Assembly (NCBI GenBank): GCA_050952265.1
Contig: JBMNKP010000004.1
Location: 101,885 to 165,884 of the forward strand
Length of the DNA: 64,000 nucleotides
From: Limnochordia bacterium
GTDB lineage: Bacteria > Bacillota > Limnochordia > Darwinibacteriales > Darwinibacteriaceae
Reading direction: 5' to 3'
The notes below the pieces were generated by a model. That model was not told the origin of the DNA. It did no database searches and saw nothing but the letters and a program-made list of their open reading frames with translations. Of the stretch, positions 2 through 13,917 are shown piece after piece; the stretch's first letter is position 1, and each line of letters opens with the position of its first letter. Made by a program: the position numbers and the translations under genes.

Positions 2-1210
2 GCCCTGGAATCAAGCGAACCTCTGCTGAAGGAGCTGGAAGACATAGACCCCCGGGCTGCTGGTCAGGCCCGTTATATCCAAAACCATGGAGCCTATCCT
101 GTTTACCGCCATCAGTACTCGAAGTTCTACCCCCTGGGGGATGTGGCGTTTCCCGACATGCTCAAGGAGCTGGAACAGGCCGAACGCTTCATCTTCCTGG
201 AATACTTCATCATTGAGGCTGGCACGATGTGGAACAGCATCCTAGACATCCTCATCCGCAAGGCCAAGGCTGGAGTGGACGTGCGCCTCATCTACGATGA
301 CTTCGGCTGCATCTTCCGCTTGCCCAAAGATTTCGTCCAGCAGATGGCCGCCCTGGGGATCAAGGTGCAGCGTTTCCATCCGATCAAGCCGATGCTGGCT
401 CCGATCATGAATTACCGGGATCACCGCAAGCTGATGATCATCGATGGGCACACGGGCTTCACTGGAGGCATCAACCTGGCCGATGAGTACATCAACGTGG
501 TGGAGAAATACGGGCATTGGAAGGACTCCGCTTTCCTGCTCAAAGGCGAGGCGGTGTGGTCCCTCACTGTCATGTTCCTGGCCATGTGGGAGTACCTCAG
601 CGGCCAGCCGGACAACTTGGACGATTTCAGGCCGCCTTTTCGGGAAGATCCCGTCCCGACGGGCGGCTTTGTCCAGCCTTTTGCAGACAACCCGCTGGAT
701 GATGAGACGGTGAGCGAGACTGTCTATATCAACGTCATCAACCGGGCGAAAGACTATGTGTACATCGACACGCCCTATCTCATCCTGGACAGCGAAATGC
801 TCACGGCCCTCTGCGCCGCAGCCAAGACCGGAGTCGATGTGCGCATAGCCACCCCTCATATTCCGGACAAGCCCTTGGTTCACGCTGTCACCCGCTCCTA
901 CTACCTTCCCCTGCTCCAGAGCGGGGTAAGGATTTTCGAGTACACTCCGGGATTTCTGCACACCAAAGCAGTGGTCGCCGACGATCAGGTGGCGGTAGTT
1001 GGGACTGTGAACCTCGATTACCGCAGTCTGTACATGGCCTTTGAGGATGCGGTGTGGCTCTACGGCACCGAAAGCGTGCTGCAGATCCGGGACGACTTCC
1101 TGGACACCCTCCGCCTCTGCCAGGAGGTGCGCCTTGCTGACTACGAGAATATCCCTGCTCTGCAGCGCGCGAAATGGTCCTTGCTCAGGCTTTTGGCCCC
1201 TATTTTATAA
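2..1210 (+). CDS. cls: Cardiolipin synthase (phospholipase D family), 5'-truncated by the window edge
   Basis: Two HKD motifs (DHRKLMIID..GGINLADEY; HTKAVVADD..GTVNLDYRS). The frame is open from position 2, upstream of the ORF-track start at 143. Confidence 0.93.
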   Translation, partial: ALESSEPLLKELEDIDPRAAGQARYIQNHGAYPVYRHQYSKFYPLGDVAFPDMLKELEQAERFIFLEYFIIEAGTMWNSILDILIRKAKAGVDVRLIYDDFGCIFRLPKDFVQQMAALGIKVQRFHPIKPMLAPIMNYRDHRKLMIIDGHTGFTGGINLADEYINVVEKYGHWKDSAFLLKGEAVWSLTVMFLAMWEYLSGQPDNLDDFRPPFREDPVPTGGFVQPFADNPLDDETVSETVYINVINRAKDYVYIDTPYLILDSEMLTALCAAAKTGVDVRIATPHIPDKPLVHAVTRSYYLPLLQSGVRIFEYTPGFLHTKAVVADDQVAVVGTVNLDYRSLYMAFEDAVWLYGTESVLQIRDDFLDTLRLCQEVRLADYENIPALQRAKWSLLRLLAPIL

Positions 1211-1275
1211 CCAACCCGAAAAGGATCATGCCGGTTTATGTCGAATAAGCTGCGTATATTCGCCAGGTACTGGGG

Positions 1276-3633
1276 GTGCGCACTGTGCCCAGCTGGAAGT
1301 TCGGCAAGATACGTGACCGCGTTCTGGCTCTCTTTGTGATCATCGTTCTAGGTCTCACGGCAACTGTCATGCTTATCTCAGGTGTGCTCACCCGCTCCCT
1401 AGTAACCGATCTGGTGGCGGAAAATGCACAAGCTCTGGCACATCACCAGAGCGAGATCCTCTCTCTGTGGCAGAGAGAGCGCATGACTTACCTGCGCCAG
1501 CTGGCCAATTCTGAGCTGCTGCAGACCATGGATTGGGAGCAGATCGAACCGTTTCTGCAGCAGCAGATGGCGGAAGCTCCCCCCTATTACTTGATCTTGT
1601 TTGTGGCCGCACCTGACGGCAGTTACAACACAACCCTCGAACGCAGCGCTGGCTTTGTCAGCGACCGAGAATACTTCGGCCGGGTCATGGCCGGCGAAAC
1701 TCTGATCACCGGCCCTCTTCTTTCCCGGTCTACTAATCAGCGCGTCATCATCGCGGCCACTCCTATCTGGAACGCGGATCGCACGACTGTCCAGGGCGTC
1801 CTCGGACTCTCCATGGATCTGGAAGAGCTGATGCGCGTTTCCCGGGAACTCCTCTTGTCCGACCAGCGTTCCCATTTCTACTTGATGGATGAAGATGGCT
1901 ACTTCATCATCCACCCCGACAGCGACATGATCATGAACGCTCGCGTACAAGATTTCGTGCCCGAATGGGACCAACTGCCCCGGGAGAGCGGATCCATATC
2001 TGGCGAGGAGAACGGCGAGGGTTATCGGGCATTCTACCAGAAGCTGCCCGATCCCAGCAACTGGACGGTAGCAGTGAAAGTACCAGTCTCCTACTTCACC
2101 GGACCCGTGAACAGGTTGATCCTGCTGTTACTGGTGGCAGCTATCGTCGGTTTTGTGCTTGTGTTCTGGCTCGGCTCCTGGTTCGCTTCCACCATAACCC
2201 GGCCCATCGTGGAACTCAATAATGTCTTCCGGCGCGGTGCCGCAGGCGATCTCACCGTGCGCGCGGAAGTTACGACGAAGGACGAAATAGGCGAAACCGG
2301 TCAGGCCTTTAACCGGATGATGGAGACCATAGGTACCATGACCTTCTACGATCCCCTGACTGGGCTGCCCAACCGTCAGCACTTCATCACCAGCTTGACT
2401 AATGCCCTCGAGAGCGCAAGCACGGTCATCCTTGCCCTGGTCTCGATCCGGGATCTTCCCGAGATCAAGACATTCGTCGACCGGCCAATTCTTGACGCTC
2501 TGCTCGTCCATCTAGCTGGGAGACTTCAGTCAATCAGTACCGAGCAACTGGTTACGGGCCGGCTTTCCGAAGGAGAATTCGGCCTGATCATCCCCTCCAA
2601 CACGAACTCGGTCCTGCAGGTTATCGACAGGCTGGATCAGCTCGTGGCCAAGCCCCTTTCCTTTGACGAAAAGAGGCTCACCGTGCGGCTCTGTGGAGGG
2701 ATAAGCATCAGTGTGGATCGAAATCTGAGTGCCGATCTGCTCTATCAGCAGGCCCAGGCAGCCCTCTATGAAGCTGAGCACAGCGGCGATGAACCGCTGA
2801 AACTCTACAACCCCAGTGTCCACCATGCGCTGGTGGAACGGATGCGTTTTCAGACGGAGATCCGGACTGGACTTGAGCAGGGGCAGTTCACCGTCTACTA
2901 CCAACCTGTTGTCGATCTGCAGACGGGTAGGATCGCCGGCAAGGAGGCCCTGATCCGCTGGAACCATCCTACACGGGGCCTGCTCAATCCCAGCCAATTT
3001 TTGCCTGCTGTGGAGCAGGGGGGCTTGGTTGAACAGATCGGGGAGTTCATGCTTGACCAGGTATGCGCTCAGCACGAACAGTGGGTGAAAGCCGGTTTTG
3101 ACCCTGGATGGGTGTCGGTGAACGTTTCGGCTCACCACTTCCGCTCGCCCCATTTTCCCGCCCAGCTGCAGTCAATCCTCAAGCGCTACGAGCTTCCGAA
3201 GGGGCTGCTGCGCATCGAAATCACTGAGGAGGCCATGCTCAAACCGACTCCCGAAGTCCTTGAAAACTTCCAGAGCCTGCGAGAAATGGGCATATACATC
3301 GCCATCGATGATTTTGGGACAGCCTACTCCTCCCTGCATTACCTCGCTCGCTACCCCATGCAGGCTCTGAAAATCGACAAGGAGTTCATCGATCGTGTCG
3401 ATAAGAGCTCCCGCATGGCGGGGCTCGTGCGTTCCATCATCGGCATGGGCATCAACCTATCCATGGAGGTTGTGGCGGAAGGCGTTGAGCGCCAGAACCA
3501 GCTGGAGCTGCTTCAGCACATGGGCTGCCGAGAAGCCCAGGGTTACCTGTTCAGCATGCCCGTGCCCTGGCAGGATTATCTGGAGGTGCAGCGCGGTCTG
3601 GCCGGGCGGTTGGCCAGTCTCCTTCCGGTCTAA
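1276..3633 (+). CDS. Membrane c-di-GMP phosphodiesterase: Cache-type sensor + HAMP + degenerate GGDEF + EAL
   Basis: Two TM segments flank an extracellular domain; HAMP (ITRPIVEL..GDLT..DEIGE); YDPLTGLPNR; GGDEF replaced by SEGEF; intact EAL motifs (EAL, NVS, EITE, DDFGTAYSS, KID, EGVE, QGY). Confidence 0.9.
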   Translation: MRTVPSWKFGKIRDRVLALFVIIVLGLTATVMLISGVLTRSLVTDLVAENAQALAHHQSEILSLWQRERMTYLRQLANSELLQTMDWEQIEPFLQQQMAEAPPYYLILFVAAPDGSYNTTLERSAGFVSDREYFGRVMAGETLITGPLLSRSTNQRVIIAATPIWNADRTTVQGVLGLSMDLEELMRVSRELLLSDQRSHFYLMDEDGYFIIHPDSDMIMNARVQDFVPEWDQLPRESGSISGEENGEGYRAFYQKLPDPSNWTVAVKVPVSYFTGPVNRLILLLLVAAIVGFVLVFWLGSWFASTITRPIVELNNVFRRGAAGDLTVRAEVTTKDEIGETGQAFNRMMETIGTMTFYDPLTGLPNRQHFITSLTNALESASTVILALVSIRDLPEIKTFVDRPILDALLVHLAGRLQSISTEQLVTGRLSEGEFGLIIPSNTNSVLQVIDRLDQLVAKPLSFDEKRLTVRLCGGISISVDRNLSADLLYQQAQAALYEAEHSGDEPLKLYNPSVHHALVERMRFQTEIRTGLEQGQFTVYYQPVVDLQTGRIAGKEALIRWNHPTRGLLNPSQFLPAVEQGGLVEQIGEFMLDQVCAQHEQWVKAGFDPGWVSVNVSAHHFRSPHFPAQLQSILKRYELPKGLLRIEITEEAMLKPTPEVLENFQSLREMGIYIAIDDFGTAYSSLHYLARYPMQALKIDKEFIDRVDKSSRMAGLVRSIIGMGINLSMEVVAEGVERQNQLELLQHMGCREAQGYLFSMPVPWQDYLEVQRGLAGRLASLLPV

Positions 3634-3677
3634 AGGCACCTTTCCCCTGTGCTCTGACCGTCAAGAATACTCGCGTT

Positions 3678-3711
3678 AAGGGCCTGCCAAAACGGCAGGC
3701 CCTTCTTTTTT
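3678..3711 (+). terminator. Rho-independent terminator
   Basis: Inverted repeat aagggcctgcc-aaaac-ggcaggccctt followed by a T-run, between convergent genes. Confidence 0.8.
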
Positions 3712-3720
3712 CCACTAAGC

Positions 3721-5190
3721 TTACAGGAACGTCTCGGCAAAATGGTAGAGCAGGCGCACGCCCACGCCAGTGGCGCCCTGCACCATGTATTCCCTGTCCT
3801 TCTCCGCAAAGGCAGTCCCCGCGATGTCCAGATGCAGCCAGGGCCTATCCTGAACGAACTCCCCGACAAACAGGCCGGCAGTTATGGTCCCCGCATCCCT
3901 TCCGCCTACATTGCGCAGGTCGGCGTAGGGTGTCTTGTTCTGTTCCCTGTACTCGGGGAAGGAAGGCAGCCGCCAGACCCTTTCCCCGCTCTTCGCAGAG
4001 GCCAGCTCAAGCCGCTGATAGAGCTCGTCGTCGTTTGTGACAACTCCTGTGGCGGCATGGCCAAGAGCGACGATCACCGCCCCTGTGAGGGTCGCCACAT
4101 CCACCACGAGCGAGGCCTTTTCTTTGGTGATGGTGTAGTGGACGGCATCGGCTAAGGTGAGCCTGCCTTCCGCATCGGTGGTCTCTACAAAAACGCTCTT
4201 CCCCGCCATGGTACCGATCACATCGCCAGGACGGTACCCGCGACCGGACACCAGGTTTTCACAGGCAGCCACCACGGCCACCACGTTAAGGCGCAGCCGT
4301 TCCCTGGCAAGAGCGCTGATGGCTCCAATAACAGAAGCGGCGCCTGCCATATCGAAGAACATCATCTCCATGCCCTTGGCCTGCTTAAGGGATAGGCCGC
4401 CGCTGTCGAAGGTCAGCCCCTTCCCCACAAGGCCGAGCACCCGGTCGGGCTGTTCGGGATCACCCAGGTACCGCATGGTGATCAACCTGGGACCGTTGAC
4501 ACTGGCCCTTCCCACGGCAAGGAAGGCCTCCATGCCCAAGGCCGCGATCCCATCTTCGGCCAGAACCTCCACCTCAAAACCGTACTTCTCCCCCGCCTTC
4601 TTGGCCTCGGCGGCCAGGCGCTCTGGGGTCATCACATTGGCCGGCTCGTTGACCAGATCCCGGGCCAGATTGGTCGTTTCCCCCAAGGTCTGGCCGAGCT
4701 TCAGCGCGGAGAGCACTTCCTTTTCGTGCTCTGGCGAAAAGCCGATCTGCAGTGAGCGCACAGAACACGGCTTCTTCTCAGCGAGATACCGGTCGAAGCG
4801 GTAAGACGCCAGCAGGAAGGCTTCGGTCACTGCCCGGGCAGCTTCACCTGTGGACAGCCTCCCGCAGGTCCAGGGCGCAATTGTCAGGGTCTCGATCTTC
4901 TGCTTGGCTGCCTCTTTCAACCCGGCTCCAAAGGACCGGCGCACCTTCTCAAGGGTCAGCTCCTCGGCCTTACCCATGCCTGCCGCGATTGCTCTCCGCG
5001 GTCTGCCGGCTCCTTCAGAAAGATACACGCACGAAGCCGTTTCCCCAAGCTTTCCGGTAAACCCCTGTGCTTCGAGCAGCTGCTTCAGGACGGGCTGCGG
5101 CCAGGCGTACTCCTTACAATCCTCTTCTGTCAGCATGAGCAGCAGATCGTCTGCCGCTTCGGTGCTGAACTTGACAGCACGTACTTCCAC
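3721..5190 (-). CDS. pepA: Leucyl aminopeptidase (M17 family)
   Basis: VGKGLTFDSGGLSLK, DMAGAA and TDAEGRL metal-binding/catalytic motifs. Confidence 0.95.
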   Translation of the reverse strand: MEVRAVKFSTEAADDLLLMLTEEDCKEYAWPQPVLKQLLEAQGFTGKLGETASCVYLSEGAGRPRRAIAAGMGKAEELTLEKVRRSFGAGLKEAAKQKIETLTIAPWTCGRLSTGEAARAVTEAFLLASYRFDRYLAEKKPCSVRSLQIGFSPEHEKEVLSALKLGQTLGETTNLARDLVNEPANVMTPERLAAEAKKAGEKYGFEVEVLAEDGIAALGMEAFLAVGRASVNGPRLITMRYLGDPEQPDRVLGLVGKGLTFDSGGLSLKQAKGMEMMFFDMAGAASVIGAISALARERLRLNVVAVVAACENLVSGRGYRPGDVIGTMAGKSVFVETTDAEGRLTLADAVHYTITKEKASLVVDVATLTGAVIVALGHAATGVVTNDDELYQRLELASAKSGERVWRLPSFPEYREQNKTPYADLRNVGGRDAGTITAGLFVGEFVQDRPWLHLDIAGTAFAEKDREYMVQGATGVGVRLLYHFAETFL

Positions 5191-8698: not shown

Positions 8699-8750
8699 GA
8701 AGACAAATAAATCCTTACCGATTAAGTTAGGATTGCAAGGAGTGGATAAG

Positions 8751-9368
8751 ATGTTCGAGCAGATCAAACTGAGCTACGACTTCGCCGCCCTGGAACCTCA
8801 CATTGACGAACTGACCATGCAGACTCACTACGGCAAGCATCACGCTGCCTATACCAATAACCTGAACAGCGCCCTGGAGAAGCTGCCCGGTCTTGCGGGC
8901 AAAAGCATTGAAGACATCCTGCAAAACCTCGAAGCAATAGACGACCCCGCACTCAGAACAACTGTACGCAACAACGGTGGAGGCTACTACAACCACAATC
9001 TATACTTTGATATCCTCAGTCCCCAAGGCGGGCAGCCTCCCCAGGGAAAACTTGCCGAACAGATTGAAGCTGATTTCGGCTCGCTGGAAGAGCTTGTCAA
9101 GAAACTGACTGCGACTGCTGCATCCGTGTTCGGTTCCGGCTGGGCCTGGCTGTCCAAAGACCCCTCCGGAAAACTGGTAGTAACCAGTACGCCCAATCAG
9201 GACAATCCCCTCATGACGCACGGTGGCCAGCTGACCCCCATTCTGGGCATCGATGTGTGGGAACACGCCTACTACCTCAAGTACAAGAACATGCGCGCCG
9301 ACTACCTCAAGGAAATCTTCAAGGTTATCGACTGGAACAAGGTTGCACAACGATACACCGAGGCGTAG
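8751..9368 (+). CDS. sodA: Superoxide dismutase, Mn-type signature
   Basis: HYGKHH, NGGGYYNH, TPNQD and DVWEHAYY; RBS-supported ATG at 8751. Confidence 0.95.
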   Translation: MFEQIKLSYDFAALEPHIDELTMQTHYGKHHAAYTNNLNSALEKLPGLAGKSIEDILQNLEAIDDPALRTTVRNNGGGYYNHNLYFDILSPQGGQPPQGKLAEQIEADFGSLEELVKKLTATAASVFGSGWAWLSKDPSGKLVVTSTPNQDNPLMTHGGQLTPILGIDVWEHAYYLKYKNMRADYLKEIFKVIDWNKVAQRYTEA

Positions 9369-9392
9369 GCCCGGCTAACCGAACACTGTTTG

Positions 9393-9424
9393 AGGTGCTG
9401 AACACCCGTTCAGCACCTTTTTTT
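9393..9424 (+). terminator. Rho-independent terminator after sod
   Basis: aggtgctgaac-accc-gttcagcacct followed by a T-run. Confidence 0.85.
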
Positions 9425-9500
9425 GATCCAAAATAGGAAGTCGAAGCCAATTCCGTTTTCCTGCCCCTGAATACTATATCCCAAGAAAGGGGGGTGTACA

Positions 9501-9707
9501 TTGGGGAACCTGTTTTCCACCAGCAGGGGCGCGGGTACGTGGGAGAACCCGGTGTCTGACCTGCTCCCGGCTTTCATGGAAGCCATCCCTCTGCTGTCCT
9601 CAATCCTAAAGCCATCCGAGGATGGCTCGCCGCCGCTCCTGTCTCTGCTCCAGCGGCTGGCGACAGCCGTGCCGGGGTTAGAAGGGGTAGAAAAAGCAAA
9701 GGAGTGA
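9501..9707 (+). CDS. Small hypothetical protein (68 aa)
   Basis: TTG start behind AAGGGGGG; first of three closely spaced small ORFs. Confidence 0.55.
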   Translation: MGNLFSTSRGAGTWENPVSDLLPAFMEAIPLLSSILKPSEDGSPPLLSLLQRLATAVPGLEGVEKAKE

Positions 9708-9712
9708 AGAAA

Positions 9713-9805
9713 ATGGGCAGACCCATCTGCTGCGGGATTGACCCGACCACGGCCATTTTCATCTTGTTCCTGGTTGCCCTGGTCATCATCGCCGCAAACA
9801 TCTAG
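9713..9805 (+). CDS. 30-aa single-TM micro-peptide (MGRPICCGIDPTTAIFILFLVALVIIAANI), reminiscent of YjcZ/SscA-like sporulation peptides
   Basis: RBS AAGGAG 5-6 nt upstream; hydrophobic C-terminal helix; not in the ORF track (below its size cut-off). Confidence 0.6.
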   Translation: MGRPICCGIDPTTAIFILFLVALVIIAANI

Positions 9806-9817
9806 CCAAAAACGGGG

Positions 9818-10090
9818 GTGCAAGCCTTGAAACGGAAGGAAGGCGAGGGAGGTTCCTCCTTCGATGCGCTGCTCAAACTCCTGCCTGCTCTGGCCTTGAG
9901 CTATCCAGCACTCACTTCTTTGGTGAACCAGCTCACAGGCCAGCCGGCAGATAACAAGACTACTGTTCAAGAAGCGGTGCCCAAGATCACCCAGGCCTTG
10001 GCCGCCATGGATGAGAGAAAAAAGGAAGAACTGGTGCGGGAGCTGCTGCGCTTTTTCCCAGAACTGGAGAAGCTGCTCAAGCAGGGATAA
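9818..10090 (+). CDS. Hypothetical helical protein (90 aa), paralog of 11449..11727
   Basis: Shares DAxL..SYP..L..QL, E.xP.x.QAL and PELE.x motifs with the 11449 protein. Confidence 0.65.
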   Translation: MQALKRKEGEGGSSFDALLKLLPALALSYPALTSLVNQLTGQPADNKTTVQEAVPKITQALAAMDERKKEELVRELLRFFPELEKLLKQG

Positions 10091-10105
10091 TGTGCTGACT
10101 GTGCC

Positions 10106-11131
10106 CTAGGAAATGGAACCTGGGGCACTTGTCTTTGCCTGGATAAGGTAGTACTGGTACTCAAGGGGAGTGACATACACCCGTTTCAGCATATCCCCAT
10201 CGCCCAGTCTCCAAAACAACCCCTTGTCGGGCTTGCCGTTTACCTCCAAGACCCAGGGTTTTCCTTCTTTGTCCAGGAGAAAGTCGACACCCAGTTCGCC
10301 CAGGCCGCCCATATTACCATCGAGCGCTTCTGCAGCCTGACGGCCCAAAGCGTGCAGCTCGTCCATTGTCCCGGGTGGTACCACATCGCGAGCCGGGACA
10401 ACCGCATGGTAACCGTTAGTTAGGAGGTTTTCTGCAGCCGTCACCCTGCTCAGCTCACCAGTAACCTCCCATTTCCCCTCCGCGTTTTTCTGAAAGACGA
10501 GGCGCACATCGAATTTGACGCCGCCCCTTTCCAGACTGTCGATGTACTGCTGAACCAGGTACTGGCCGGAAGGAACAGACGCAGCGAGGATCGGAAGGTA
10601 AAGAGCTTCTCCCCAGACAGGAAAGGAAAGGCCATGGGAGGTGATCAGCACCAATTCAGGCCCGAGCAGGGTCAGCTTGAACACCCCTGCCCCACCGTGT
10701 CCTCGGCGGGGTTTGAGGATCAGCGACTTGTGCTCCTGCAGAAGCTGTGACAGATCCTGAGGCTCGAAAAGGTAAGTCTTTGGCAGGCATGCGCCCAGCT
10801 GTGCAGCGCTGAGGATCTCCCATACTTCCCATTTGTCCAGCTGGGTTCGCTGATTAAACACGTTTTCCGGGCCGATGGCCTCGCTGAGCTTGGCTAAGAG
10901 CGCCCTCGGTTCTGGGAAGCAGCGGTTGTAGACGGTCCTTGGAAGGGTGTACTCCCCCATCCGCCACACTCCCTTGCGCAGCCTCAAGCCCGTGACCGTT
11001 CGCCGCTCCCAGTCGATTCCCCTTGGTTCAAAAAAGAGGAGCTCTCCGCGGACGTCTCGCCAGTGATCGCGGTAATACGGCACTTCCTTGAGCGCGGTCA
11101 GCAGCAGCCCCCTGTCTATCCTCGGCGTCAA
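10106..11131 (-). CDS. YheC/YheD-family ATP-grasp protein (endospore coat-associated)
   Basis: LPRTVYNRC, DKW, LPKT, LILKP..G.GG.GV, YLVQQYI, FDVRLVFQK and ELGVDFLLD..G.PWVLEVNGKP; TTG start behind GGGGG. Confidence 0.85.
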   Translation of the reverse strand: MTPRIDRGLLLTALKEVPYYRDHWRDVRGELLFFEPRGIDWERRTVTGLRLRKGVWRMGEYTLPRTVYNRCFPEPRALLAKLSEAIGPENVFNQRTQLDKWEVWEILSAAQLGACLPKTYLFEPQDLSQLLQEHKSLILKPRRGHGGAGVFKLTLLGPELVLITSHGLSFPVWGEALYLPILAASVPSGQYLVQQYIDSLERGGVKFDVRLVFQKNAEGKWEVTGELSRVTAAENLLTNGYHAVVPARDVVPPGTMDELHALGRQAAEALDGNMGGLGELGVDFLLDKEGKPWVLEVNGKPDKGLFWRLGDGDMLKRVYVTPLEYQYYLIQAKTSAPGSIS

Positions 11132-11250
11132 GCAAGACACCCCCCTAGGCTGAAAACGGGAACCAGGCATGATAACCGACCCGCCCCAGCTTCATAACTT
11201 AAGAGCAAGAAGGCTAACTTCTTAATCTGCTCACCGAGGGGGTGCACTGA

Positions 11251-11331
11251 ATGAATGATAATCAGGAGACCTTCATCGTCTTCGTGGCTTTGATCCTCAT
11301 CGTCGTTCTGGCTGTGATCCTCTTGGCCTAG
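11251..11331 (+). CDS. 26-aa single-TM micro-peptide (MNDNQETFIVFVALILIVVLAVILLA)
   Basis: RBS GAGGGGGTG upstream; hydrophobic helix; same position relative to a 90-aa gene as the 9713 peptide. Confidence 0.55.
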   Translation: MNDNQETFIVFVALILIVVLAVILLA

Positions 11332-11448
11332 CCGCTACCGAGGATGGGGCGCGCCCCCATCCTCATCTTCTTGCTTTATTTATATACCCACAGCCGTCAA
11401 ACGGTGACTGAGATTCCTTATCTCGTGAAAAGGAGGCTGCGCCTGGAA

Positions 11449-11727
11449 ATGAGCAGTGAACAGCGGGCAGAAACTCCCAGCGTCGTAGATGCGATCCTGC
11501 AGATCTGCGTCTTTGCCCTCACCAGTTACCCGGTCATCTCGCCTCTCCTCAGCCAGCTGAGGCAGGAGCTGCGGGAGACCTTTGAGCGGGTCATAGAAGT
11601 GCTGCCGCGCCTGAGCCAAGCCTTGGGCGAAGTCCAAGTGGACAGCCGGCTGACCGAGCAGTTTACCAACCAGCTGCTGGAGAACGTTCCCGAACTGGAA
11701 CGCTTCTTTCGGAGACTGCGGGATTGA
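11449..11727 (+). CDS. Hypothetical helical protein (92 aa), paralog of 9818..10090
   Basis: AAAGGAGG upstream of ATG 11449; motif similarity to the 9818 protein. Confidence 0.65.
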   Translation: MSSEQRAETPSVVDAILQICVFALTSYPVISPLLSQLRQELRETFERVIEVLPRLSQALGEVQVDSRLTEQFTNQLLENVPELERFFRRLRD

Positions 11728-11740
11728 GCGAGGAGATCCG

Positions 11741-11777
11741 AAAAAGCTGGGAGGCGGAATGACCTACCCAGCTTTTT
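11741..11777. terminator. Bidirectional terminator
   Basis: aaaaagctggg...cccagcttttt between convergent genes. Confidence 0.75.
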
Positions 11778-12220
11778 TATGCCTCTGCCTCAGTATCCAA
11801 CCTGCGAAGGAGGAGCGCCAGTACTGCTCCCCACATGACAGCACCCACAAGCGTCGAGATCAGGGTGCCGGTGGTTGTCCTGACCAAGTTGGGGACCTTG
11901 AACAGGACAACGATAGACTCCTCAAGGAAGCTCACGATCACACTGAAGATGACCGCCTTGCCGATCAGTCCTTGACTGCCGATACTCCGCAGCAGATAGA
12001 CAAAGAAGATGCCGCGCAGGCCTGACCATACGAGCTGCATAAACAGGGCCAGCACAACCTGGACCGCTGTCCGCGGCAAGACTCCGAAGACCATCATCCC
12101 CGCCCAATCCAAGAGCCTCCGCTGGGTCAGACCCAGGATATGGTAGGAAAAGAGACTCCAGGCATTGAGGGGAACAGCCGCGACCATCCCCGCCACGAAT
12201 CCCCGGTAAAACCGATCCAC
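11777..12220 (-). CDS. Hypothetical integral membrane protein (about 4 TM)
   Basis: Hydrophobic segments; GTG start behind GGGGA. Confidence 0.7.
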   Translation of the reverse strand: MDRFYRGFVAGMVAAVPLNAWSLFSYHILGLTQRRLLDWAGMMVFGVLPRTAVQVVLALFMQLVWSGLRGIFFVYLLRSIGSQGLIGKAVIFSVIVSFLEESIVVLFKVPNLVRTTTGTLISTLVGAVMWGAVLALLLRRLDTEAEA

Positions 12221-12291
12221 ATCGTCCCCCGCCTTTCCAGGCATAGGGTGTCCAAGAGGAGCAAAAGCATGCCCCCTCTGCCGCAGCGCGG

Positions 12292-13848
12292 CTAGAAGAC
12301 CAAAGGCGTTGAGGCTTGTGCTCCTGGAATAAAGAGGAGATACTGGAAGTAGTCAGTGGTCACGCCACTGGCAGGACTGACCTCGGTCAGTTTCCAGATC
12401 AGCTCCTCGGTGAAGGGTGAACCAGCACTGTCCAGTTTTGCGAGAAGCGGCTGACCACCAGCCAGCTCAGGCAAGACCTGGGTACTGCCTGCGTAGGTAG
12501 ACAGGGGCATGGTCTGCGAACCATCCTGACTGAGCCGCTCGCCGCCAGAATAGACCAGCACCATACTGAAGACGGAGTCTGAAAACCCTTCGGTGCGGGC
12601 GATTTTGGAGGCCAGCCAGTCCACGCCCAGCACCTGCCCCTGAAAGACGTGGTGCAGTCCCCACTGCCCGAAGTACTTCTGCCCGTCATCTGGCGAAACC
12701 TGTCTGACGAAGTTCTCGTACATGGCCTGTTCCCGGCTGCTGTCCCAGGCCAAGCCGCTGAAGGTCTGCAGCTGCAGGCCTGCCAAGAGGCTCGAGAGGA
12801 CAAGCTCAAACTCTCCCGCCAGTTCGCCCAGCTCGGCCCGGACTGCCTTCTGCTGCAGCTCCAAAAGCAGGTCTTGAACGAAGCTGAGGGCTTCGTTGTA
12901 GTCTAGGCTGAGTTCGCCCCGGAGGATCCGGTCGATCTGGCCCAGCTTGGATTGGGACAGGATGCTGCTGTCTATGCGGTCTAGATGACGCTGCAGATAA
13001 CTCAAGGCCAGAAGAGGCTGATGCTCTACGTCCAGACCGATCAAGCGCAGCTCTTTGCCTTCAGGAAGAGACTGGTACAGATCGTGCACCTTCTGCCAGT
13101 GGACGTAGTTCTCCTCGGTGAAAAAGTAGGTGCCTTTCACCAAGGAAAAGACCTGATCCAGAAGGGCCTGATCGCCCGTTTCCAGATACTCCCGCAGAAA
13201 ACCGACGAGGCTCGGCGAGAGTTCGAGCAGCAGATTCTGAACTCCGCCTTGGCGGACCAGGAACTCCAACAGGGCCGACTCCAGCTGCTGGTTGCAGGCC
13301 GCCCCGTGCGTTTCGCCCACCAAGAAGACCCGGTAGTCTGCCAGTTCACCGTCAAGGTACTCCGCGATATCCTCCCAGCGGGCGACGGACCAGCTCCAGG
13401 CTTTCAGGTACTCCCGCAGAACGGCTTGATCCGCGCCAGAAGTTCCTTCCAGGTCAAACCTGAGAGCGGTCTTGGCGAGTTCGGCGAGGGCAGGCTGTTC
13501 AGTCACCAGCTCCAGGACGCGGCGCCCACTTCGCCCCACCATCTCGGGGGGATGAAAACCCAGGAAGAGCTCTTCGAGGGCCTGAGCCTCGGCTTCGGTC
13601 TCGGTGAGCACCAGGTTCACCTGGACACCGCCCGTCGGGGTGCCGAACAGGTAGTTCTTCAAGACAACAACCGTGACGCCAAGCCGTTCAGAGAAAACCT
13701 GAAGATCGCCAGCCCCTGCCGCATATTCACCCAGCAGAATCCAGTCTTCGGGCACAGAAGCCAGATCGAGGCGGGTGCCTTCATCCGCAGCACTCACGGC
13801 GGCAGACAGCAGGCAGATGGTCAGCAAGATGCACATTACTCGCCACAT
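12292..13848 (-). CDS. Secreted protein with a C-terminal erythromycin-esterase-like (EreA/TIKI-type) domain
   Basis: Signal peptide; FLVGETHG, LLLELS, GLDVEH, REQAMYEN and GQWGLHH motifs. Confidence 0.65.
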   Translation of the reverse strand: MWRVMCILLTICLLSAAVSAADEGTRLDLASVPEDWILLGEYAAGAGDLQVFSERLGVTVVVLKNYLFGTPTGGVQVNLVLTETEAEAQALEELFLGFHPPEMVGRSGRRVLELVTEQPALAELAKTALRFDLEGTSGADQAVLREYLKAWSWSVARWEDIAEYLDGELADYRVFLVGETHGAACNQQLESALLEFLVRQGGVQNLLLELSPSLVGFLREYLETGDQALLDQVFSLVKGTYFFTEENYVHWQKVHDLYQSLPEGKELRLIGLDVEHQPLLALSYLQRHLDRIDSSILSQSKLGQIDRILRGELSLDYNEALSFVQDLLLELQQKAVRAELGELAGEFELVLSSLLAGLQLQTFSGLAWDSSREQAMYENFVRQVSPDDGQKYFGQWGLHHVFQGQVLGVDWLASKIARTEGFSDSVFSMVLVYSGGERLSQDGSQTMPLSTYAGSTQVLPELAGGQPLLAKLDSAGSPFTEELIWKLTEVSPASGVTTDYFQYLLFIPGAQASTPLVF

Positions 13849-13879
13849 GGCCATTCTCCTTTGCGAATTTTCTAAATCC

Positions 13880-13908
13880 AGTATAACATCTTCTCGGCCG
13901 CTGCTCAA
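13880..13908 (-). promoter_or_regulatory. Sigma-A promoter for the esterase-like gene
   Basis: Minus strand TTGAGC-N17-TATACT with an extended TG. Confidence 0.55.
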
Positions 13909-13917
13909 GGTTAGCAA

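Follow-up and report, generated by a model that had tools for sequence, protein, structure and literature searches.

Conserved micropeptide and small helical protein genes beside a YheC/D-type ATP-grasp ligase gene in an order of uncultured spore-forming Bacillota

What is the role of the very small genes that lie on both sides of a YheC/D-type ATP-grasp ligase gene in a Limnochordia bacterium? The question is raised by positions 9430-11727 of the stretch of DNA analysed here (the window, 64,000 nucleotides (nt) in length), which belongs to a genome of 2.25 Mb that is 98% complete. A left operon of three plus-strand genes (p68, the micropeptide tmA and an A-type helical protein) is followed there by the ligase gene on the opposite strand and then by the micropeptide gene tmB and a B-type helical protein gene. 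The helical proteins are called LLP here, after the repeated Leu-Leu-Pro-x-Leu starts of their helices. YheC/YheD-type ligases are widespread in spore-formers, and their association with the spore coat has been known since the early 2000s. The small genes and the ligase very probably constitute a real co-functional module. The best reading of this module would be a role at the sporulation stage in which the ligase targets the small proteins or is anchored by them, and its probability is put at roughly one half on the basis of anatomy, context and analogy.

A link between the small genes and the YheC/D gene had already been proposed in a preliminary description made from the sequence letters alone. 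The proposal was borne out by adjacency in all 23 loci mapped, which represent eight genera and two families with changing flanks. tmA lies beside the ligase in 23/23 loci and tmB in 22/23, where the profiles behind the final table were built from the same locus sequences and the independent step is the first tblastn search with the window proteins. The gene next after tmB belongs to the LLP family for 25 of 26 tmB genes. The flanks consist of superoxide dismutase (SOD), oxidoreductase and helicase genes in genera 1 and 10, of S9 peptidase and iron-containing alcohol dehydrogenase genes in genus 6, and of GH95 and GH4 genes in family 3. As the flanking genes thus change between genera, the module travels as a unit. 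Wherever a small-gene family gave a match in the genomes searched, the match lay at the module and adjoined the ligase.

The internal order varies between lineages, and the number of LLP paralogues ranges from one to three. LLP-tmA-LLP-<ligase-tmB-LLP (< for the opposite strand) was found in 6/6 loci of genus 1 and, complete, in 5/7 loci of genus 10, the other two being a locus truncated at a contig end and a locus without the last LLP gene. Genera 5 and 6 have <ligase-tmB-LLP-tmA-tmB-LLP (4/4), and family 3 has tmA-<ligase-tmB-LLP (5/5) with an LLP protein of 144-164 amino acids (aa). The genus 7 locus reads p68-type-tmA-<ligase, and its contig ends 488 nt further on. Where other loci have the tmB cassette, divergent from the ligase, genus 7 instead has a gene for a 94-aa protein that contains four CxxC pairs and gives zinc-ribbon matches, and the contig ends soon after.

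The distribution of the module is narrow. Matches to the A-type protein were found in 21 of 41 relatives, to which the profiles add one genome (G026), and within the genome of the window there are two, both inside the module locus. tmB occurs in 23 of 95 genomes of the class (5/52 genera), every time at the module location, and tmA in six of 401 genomes sampled phylum-wide, all of the same order. Two tmB patterns searched against the genomes of 185,579 species (one per species) gave 16 loci. All of them lie in metagenome-assembled genomes of this group, titled Firmicutes, Bacillota, Clostridia or Peptococcaceae bacterium, many from digesters. The module is therefore restricted to one order of uncultured spore-forming Bacillota of anaerobic digesters.

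An open reading frame (ORF) check found the positions and descriptions given in the preliminary description for five small ORFs and the minus-strand YheC/D gene to be correct (Table 1). Every small ORF, in the window and in the orthologues, is preceded by a properly spaced GGAGG-like ribosome-binding site and starts with ATG, GTG or TTG. For the A-type gene, the TTG start behind a ribosome-binding site is more likely than the GTG start at 9818. The five small proteins had all been predicted already by some public gene callers, and the public collection entries examined carried no source name, save that of an MFS transporter which had been clustered with tmA although unrelated to it. Scans of the small ORFs with Pfam and NCBIfam gave nothing above chance, five micropeptide sequences were without a Pfam match at E<=10, and the ESM Atlas gave no usable match for the small proteins.

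The micropeptides are genuine protein-coding genes under strong purifying selection. tmA has a head of the form Met-Gly-Arg-Pro..Cys-Cys..Asp-Pro followed by a single hydrophobic helix, and across the orthologues the head reads Met-Gly-(Arg/Lys) with Cys and Asp. Its mean column identity is 81% (14 orthologues), and when the members of family 3 and genus 7 are added, giving 16 sequences of two families, M1, G2, C7 and D10 show no variation. The ratio of nonsynonymous to synonymous differences per site (pN/pS) is 0.21. tmB has an acidic head of seven residues and 19 hydrophobic residues that reach the C-terminus, is without a basic residue, ends in an invariant ...ILLA and has a grand average of hydropathy (GRAVY) of 2.0. 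Its mean column identity amounts to 90%, with 13 of the 26 columns invariant (22 orthologues), in contrast to the neighbouring ligase orthologues, which are only 35-67% identical to the window ligase. In the nucleotide sequences, pS amounts to 0.60 and pN to 0.072 (pN/pS 0.12), and within the hydrophobic stretch 18 of 19 third codon positions vary compared to none of the 19 second positions.

Only in part do the two sides of the ligase mirror each other. The preliminary description had regarded them as two paralogous cassettes, and for the LLP pair of about 90 aa this stands, as the two proteins are homologous far past chance (BLASTP E=1e-12, 31% identity over 85 residues). For the micropeptides it does not, since comparison of the tmA and tmB profiles by hhalign gave a probability of 7.5% over four residues; these are two separate families, and the cassettes are no simple duplicates. 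The 68-aa ORF, which starts with Met-Gly-Asn, is a third LLP paralogue (hhalign 98.1%, E=1e-13, nine p68-type against 21 A-type sequences). The p68 of the window has 68 aa compared to 73-83 aa in the five other genomes of the genus, with an in-frame loss around ...LLKE-DPQAL.....

Within an alignment of 41 LLP sequences, P27 does not vary and P78 and L80 hardly do, and the charge of the proteins is acidic to neutral. An AlphaFold2 model of the A-type protein is all-helical with five helices, at a mean predicted local distance difference test (pLDDT) of 65, and Foldseek found no match for it in the PDB at E<=0.001. A profile search over 1.84 billion representatives returned about 30 small LLP relatives, and the other matches were long repeat proteins. 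The profile matches stretches of 30-70 residues or single units of long helical repeat proteins, HEAT-like and others (P0018, P0026, P0033, P0054), with E down to 4e-17. An assignment of LLP to the HEAT-like repeat proteins was rejected, as there is no Pfam match and the matches to long proteins were read as compositional likeness. The LLP fold may be a mini-repeat of two or three units, or the repeat-protein match may reflect merely shared composition. The terminal Glu of p68 was also considered as an acceptor for a ligase like tubulin-tyrosine ligase (TTL) or RimK and was discarded, because the terminal Glu of p68-type proteins is encoded by the overlapping AAGGAG ribosome-binding site of tmA.

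The identification of the minus-strand gene as YheC/D stands. Residues 104-342 match PF14398 with 155.9 bits compared to a cut-off of 26.8 (E=1.5e-45), and the orthologous ligases of other genera match it with E of 5e-46 to 6e-62. The alignment of 23 orthologues contains 42 invariant columns. The LKP and LEVNGKP motifs contribute K153, E309 and N311 to these, residues that would be catalytic going by the general picture of ATP-grasp enzymes. The closest solved sequences by profile are TTL and the TTL-like (TTLL) protein TTLL6 (E 1.7e-5 to 1e-4). A complex prediction of the ligase with the A-type protein scored 0.02 compared to a mark of 0.32, which speaks neither for nor against binding. A division into an acidic substrate and a basic ligase was dropped, as the isoelectric points of the proteins did not separate. 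In Bacillus subtilis, yheC and yheD belong to the sigma-E/SpoIIID regulon (PMC517825), YheD is a SpoIVA-dependent protein of the coat basement layer (PMC7725329), and YheC and YheD are listed among the conserved coat enzymes (preprint 10.1101/2022.02.25.481979). In the portions of the literature found, no substrate or product of YheC/YheD-type ligases is named.

Upstream of the small genes, promoter-like elements were found that are specific to the module. The box CATAACTT, which had been pointed out as resembling a mother-cell sigma-E/K -10 box, is indeed located at 11193-11200, and its position is kept in all 23 aligned tmB upstream regions, where ATAnnnT(A/G) begins with CATA in 20 and AATA in three. 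The motif AAAAYRGGR precedes an ATAnnnT(A/G) box by 32 nt both before p68 and before tmB. The tmB element shares sequence with the initial codons of the ligase gene, and the left element is kept upstream of p68-type genes (nine sequences aligned). In the whole 2.25-Mb genome, the pattern AAAAYRGGR-N30-34-ATANNNTR has two matches, both in the module, compared to none for the reversed-pattern control, and it is also present in other genomes, at 18 of their 22 module loci. According to PMC11180830, the SpoIIID site is TAGGACAAGC. Three promoters of genera 5 and 6 have TAGGACA as the AAAAYRGGR-type core, which agrees with that site at 7/10 positions. In these two genera, a third promoter-like copy (AAAATCGGGAAC, 28 nt, TAATATCATA) lies before the LLP gene, and the box is missing there in genus 1.

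Hairpins lie on both sides of tmB. A stem-loop in the 5' leader covaries (arms AAGAAG/CTTCTT compared to GAGAG/CTCTC), with 89% of cells paired and compensatory changes in four of six pairs. The observed value was reached in 0 of 500 shuffles, and slid controls gave 42-56%. In Bacillus, a stem at the extreme 5' end of a transcript is an mRNA-stabilising device. Behind tmB, a hairpin was found in 19/19 genes tested, 8-12 nt past the stop, with 9-11 GC-rich base pairs, a free energy of -14 to -29 kcal/mol and a pyrimidine tail behind it. Taken together, module-specific promoters, a 5' hairpin of the stabilising type and the post-tmB hairpin are the anatomy of abundantly made small transcripts. 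Between this hairpin and the LLP gene, a conserved TATATGA followed by the motif GAAAACGG(G/T)RAC was observed in the window and after tmB in loci L029, L030, L032 and L033.

Expression of the module at the sporulation stage is considered slightly better than an even bet. The genome encodes Spo0A, SpoIVA, SpoVAC/EB, SpoIIID and a sigma-E above the NCBIfam cut-off. ATAnnnT(A/G) boxes with ATA- or AC-type -35 elements lie upstream of its own spoIVA, spoIIID and sigK genes and resemble the boxes of the module. The stretch was also found in contigs of 24 sequencing runs from 21 studies, of which 23 runs are recorded as RNA, almost all anaerobic-digester metatranscriptomes. Contigs of four runs span 9356-10291, 9687-10476 and 11149/11158/11243 to beyond 12000. 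Depth is 8-83 for the module contigs compared to 1e4-1e5 for the adjacent SOD gene, and neither the uncovered parts nor the contig ends near 11149-11243 nor the depth differences are readable as transcript starts or expression levels. The four digester RNA libraries show this depth for the SOD gene, which is of the Fe/Mn type, a value roughly a thousandfold that of its neighbours. Several contigs stop at 9379-9385, shortly ahead of the terminator hairpin. The sigK gene itself is split, with its Sigma70_r2 and Sigma70_r4 halves about 3.9-4 kb apart; the intervening DNA carries genes for a large serine recombinase, adjoining the 3' half, and for a GH65 glycoside phosphorylase and a HAD hydrolase. 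The insertion looks like a miniature skin-like element with a sugar-metabolism cargo.

According to the sporulation reading, the module would be switched on in the mother cell during sporulation, and its micropeptides would become embedded in a membrane, with the outer forespore membrane as the most plausible site. The micropeptides might carry the LLP proteins, and the ligase might act on this assembly by adding amino acids or cross-links, as TTL and TTLL enzymes act on tubulin tails, or might instead be anchored by it. That one of the small proteins is the actual substrate is possible, if rather doubtful. More specifically, the solitary ligase could act directly on the micropeptides, adding residues or joining free termini, and the product could be a membrane-embedded, stitched layer of the spore envelope. 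For the joining, the invariant ...Ile-Leu-Leu-Ala end of tmB would supply the carboxylate, and the Met-Gly proteins would expose an N-terminal glycine amine. This version is unlikely.

A number of points weigh against the sporulation reading. Anatomy, context and analogy are what it draws on, as opposed to expression, location or chemistry. SpoIVA is present in 23/23 module genomes and also in 89/95 genomes of the class, and its co-occurrence with the module therefore says little. The contigs from RNA libraries indicate presence in libraries that are not flat DNA; strand, start, level and stage are not readable from them, and DNA carry-over is possible. The -10 letters used for comparison are what we take to be the sigma-E/K consensus, and an ATAnnnTR box is expected by chance within 40 nt of a start in roughly 8% of cases. 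Sigma-E and sigma-K promoter classes share identical -10 sequences according to PMC517825. The composite pattern was derived from its two sites in the window, and therefore the real finding is the absence of other matches in the genome. The SpoIIID site is matched in the window at only 3-5/10 positions, and the LLP model with its low pLDDT is of low confidence.

Four other explanations were weighed. The neighbourhood might be conserved without shared function, the small genes encoding independent membrane or stress proteins linked, for example, to SOD. In genera 1 and 10 the left operon does directly follow SOD, the contigs from RNA libraries are dominated by SOD, and the observed tie of the small genes to the ligase is one of gene adjacency. 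Where the flanks are unrelated (genera 5, 6 and 7, family 3), however, the small genes keep to the ligase and not to SOD; a terminator separates SOD from the left operon, and every match to the small-gene families in the genomes searched adjoins the ligase, which makes this explanation rather unlikely. tmB might also be mainly a regulatory leader peptide, functionless in itself, whose translation near the hairpin controls read-through into the LLP gene by attenuation or nascent-peptide arrest. A micro-ORF, a hairpin 8-12 nt past its stop and a downstream gene were found together in 19/19 cases tested, and a peptide of 26 residues would still be in the ribosome tunnel at termination. Yet head and helix of tmB are alike conserved across two families, and length and composition (GRAVY 2.0) fit a membrane helix. 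The downstream LLP gene has its own promoter-like copy in genera 5 and 6 and family 3, and the equally conserved tmA is without such a hairpin. A leader function alone is therefore regarded as quite improbable.

The combination of an ATP-grasp enzyme with short, separately transcribed and abundantly expressed peptide genes, each with a hairpin like a leaky terminator, also recalls clusters for peptides made by the ribosome and modified after translation (RiPPs). As in graspetides, the micropeptides would then be precursors of a secreted, cyclised product. This is very improbable, as there is no leader/core organisation and no repeated core motif of Thr/Ser/Lys with Asp/Glu (tmB has one Thr, tmA none), the peptides consist almost entirely of a hydrophobic helix behind a polar head of 7-12 residues, the flanks contain no conserved protease or exporter/transporter, and the best family of the ligase is YheC/D and not the RimK/MdnB type. 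Size, hydrophobicity, own promoter and structured 5' leader would all suit type I toxin-like or phage-type hydrophobic killers with antidotes nearby. Loci of type I toxins, however, stand alone, often in several copies, and have an overlapping antisense RNA. An explanation of this kind is hardly credible, given that the synteny with an enzyme is strict and confined to a single locus throughout two families, that there are one or two copies per genome and that a mobile-element context is lacking. No antisense RNA was seen, though no search aimed at one was made.

Among known systems, YheC/YheD of B. subtilis is similar in that the ligase is of the same PF14398 family, the host encodes the sporulation programme and the promoter-like boxes resemble those of the mother-cell kind. 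It differs in that the module has a single ligase instead of a yheCD pair and dedicated micropeptide and LLP genes in addition. The TTL/TTLL polyglutamylases, closest to the ligase among solved proteins by profile, are likewise ATP-grasp enzymes, and what they extend with amino acids is a protein and not a metabolite; however, the similarity is confined to about 30-80 residues around the ATP/Mg site, and the module is without an evident acidic-tail substrate. SpoVM is a sporulation peptide of 26 aa with an amphipathic basic helix that anchors the coat protein SpoIVA at the forespore surface. By description and not by sequence, tmB has the same length, whereas it contains no basic residue and has a fully hydrophobic stretch of 19 residues. 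YjcZ/Tiny_TM_bacill (PF09680) proteins are also tiny hydrophobic peptides of spore-formers, and the YjcZ_2/Tiny_TM_bacill PF09680 model has no match in the genome at E<=10. Graspetide (omega-ester peptide) clusters share the ATP-grasp ligase beside short peptide genes, whereas in the module leader/core, core motif, protease and exporter are lacking and the ligase family is a different one.

No description of such a ligase-micropeptide-LLP module was found in the portion of the literature listings searched, and the module is a variant of the YheC/D spore-ligase theme not described before in the literature found. It adds three unnamed families of small proteins, two of them with 26-31 residues. 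With one ligase and a handful of tiny, extremely conserved and co-inherited proteins, it narrows the question of YheC/D targets to six genes, and the tiny membrane peptides and helical proteins are candidate partners or substrates of the ligase. If the ligase does act directly on the micropeptides, the YheC/D family would for the first time have defined substrates.

Table 1. Features of the ligase locus and of related loci. Positions refer to the window unless a locus (L) is named; G000 is the genome of the window.
Feature	Position	Strand	Remarks
Fe/Mn SOD gene	8745-9368		adjacent to the module
Terminator hairpin	9392-9419		between SOD gene and left operon
Composite element, left operon	9430-9478	+	AAAATAGGA, 32 nt, ATACTATA
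p68	9501-9707	+	TTG start, 68 aa, C-type LLP member
tmA micropeptide	9713-9805	+	30 aa, AAGGAG ribosome-binding site
A-type LLP protein	9827-10090	+	87 aa from TTG 9827; 90 aa from GTG 9818
Hairpin between convergent A-type and ligase genes	10101-10128		terminator-like in consensus scan
YheC/D-type ATP-grasp ligase	10106-11170	-	354 aa, PF14398
Composite element, tmB	11153-11201	+	AAAACGGGA, 32 nt, ATAACTTA; contains CATAACTT at 11193
5' leader stem-loop of tmB	11207-11223	+	AAGAAG, loop GCTAA, CTTCTT; 6 nt past -10-like box
tmB micropeptide	11251-11331	+	26 aa
GC-rich hairpin and pyrimidine tail after tmB	11340-11364	+	terminator or attenuator
Conserved motifs after tmB	11365-11448		TATATGA, then GAAAACGG(G/T)RAC
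B-type LLP protein	11449-11727	+	92 aa, A-type paralogue
DUF6789-like membrane protein	11777-12244	-	155 aa
ChaN/Tiki-like protein	12292-13917	-	541 aa
94-aa CxxC protein, genus 7	L065 5031-5315	-	in the place of the tmB cassette
Split sigK region	L100 (G000:C6:82500-87800): 291-773, 642-3023(-), 3068-3730(-), 3804-4646, 4643-4993		
Small neighbour of second YheC/D paralogue	L003 699-1055(-) in G000 contig 5; L066 3992-4327(-); L070 5158-5400; L072 5060-5326(-); L073 5114-5371; L074 5028-5279(-)		80-111 aa
Composite pattern before second partner gene	L074 5332-5381	-	genome G026

The genome of the window contains two YheC/D genes, of which the second is without a micropeptide/LLP cassette. This second paralogue type has a conserved small neighbour of its own, with an MG-I/V-R..CC.CP start and a Pro-rich tail (PPPP), for which no Pfam family was found. 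A word-based search for this partner returned only two proteins, and in the genome of the window its gene is apparently split over two reading frames. In genome G026, the composite pattern AAAAYRGGR-N30-34-ATANNNTR lies directly upstream of the second partner gene, which suggests that the small partners of both ligase paralogues are under common control. The p68-type proteins share an invariant Met-Gly start with tmA and also with the partner of the second paralogue, unrelated though that partner is; this is a post-hoc observation to be taken only as a lead.

Behind the module, two further genes were seen in genera 1 and 10 in variable order, one for a membrane protein with a weak DUF6789 match and one for a protein with a weak match to ChaN/Tiki-type haem-binding proteins. 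Both are absent beside the module in genera 5 and 6.

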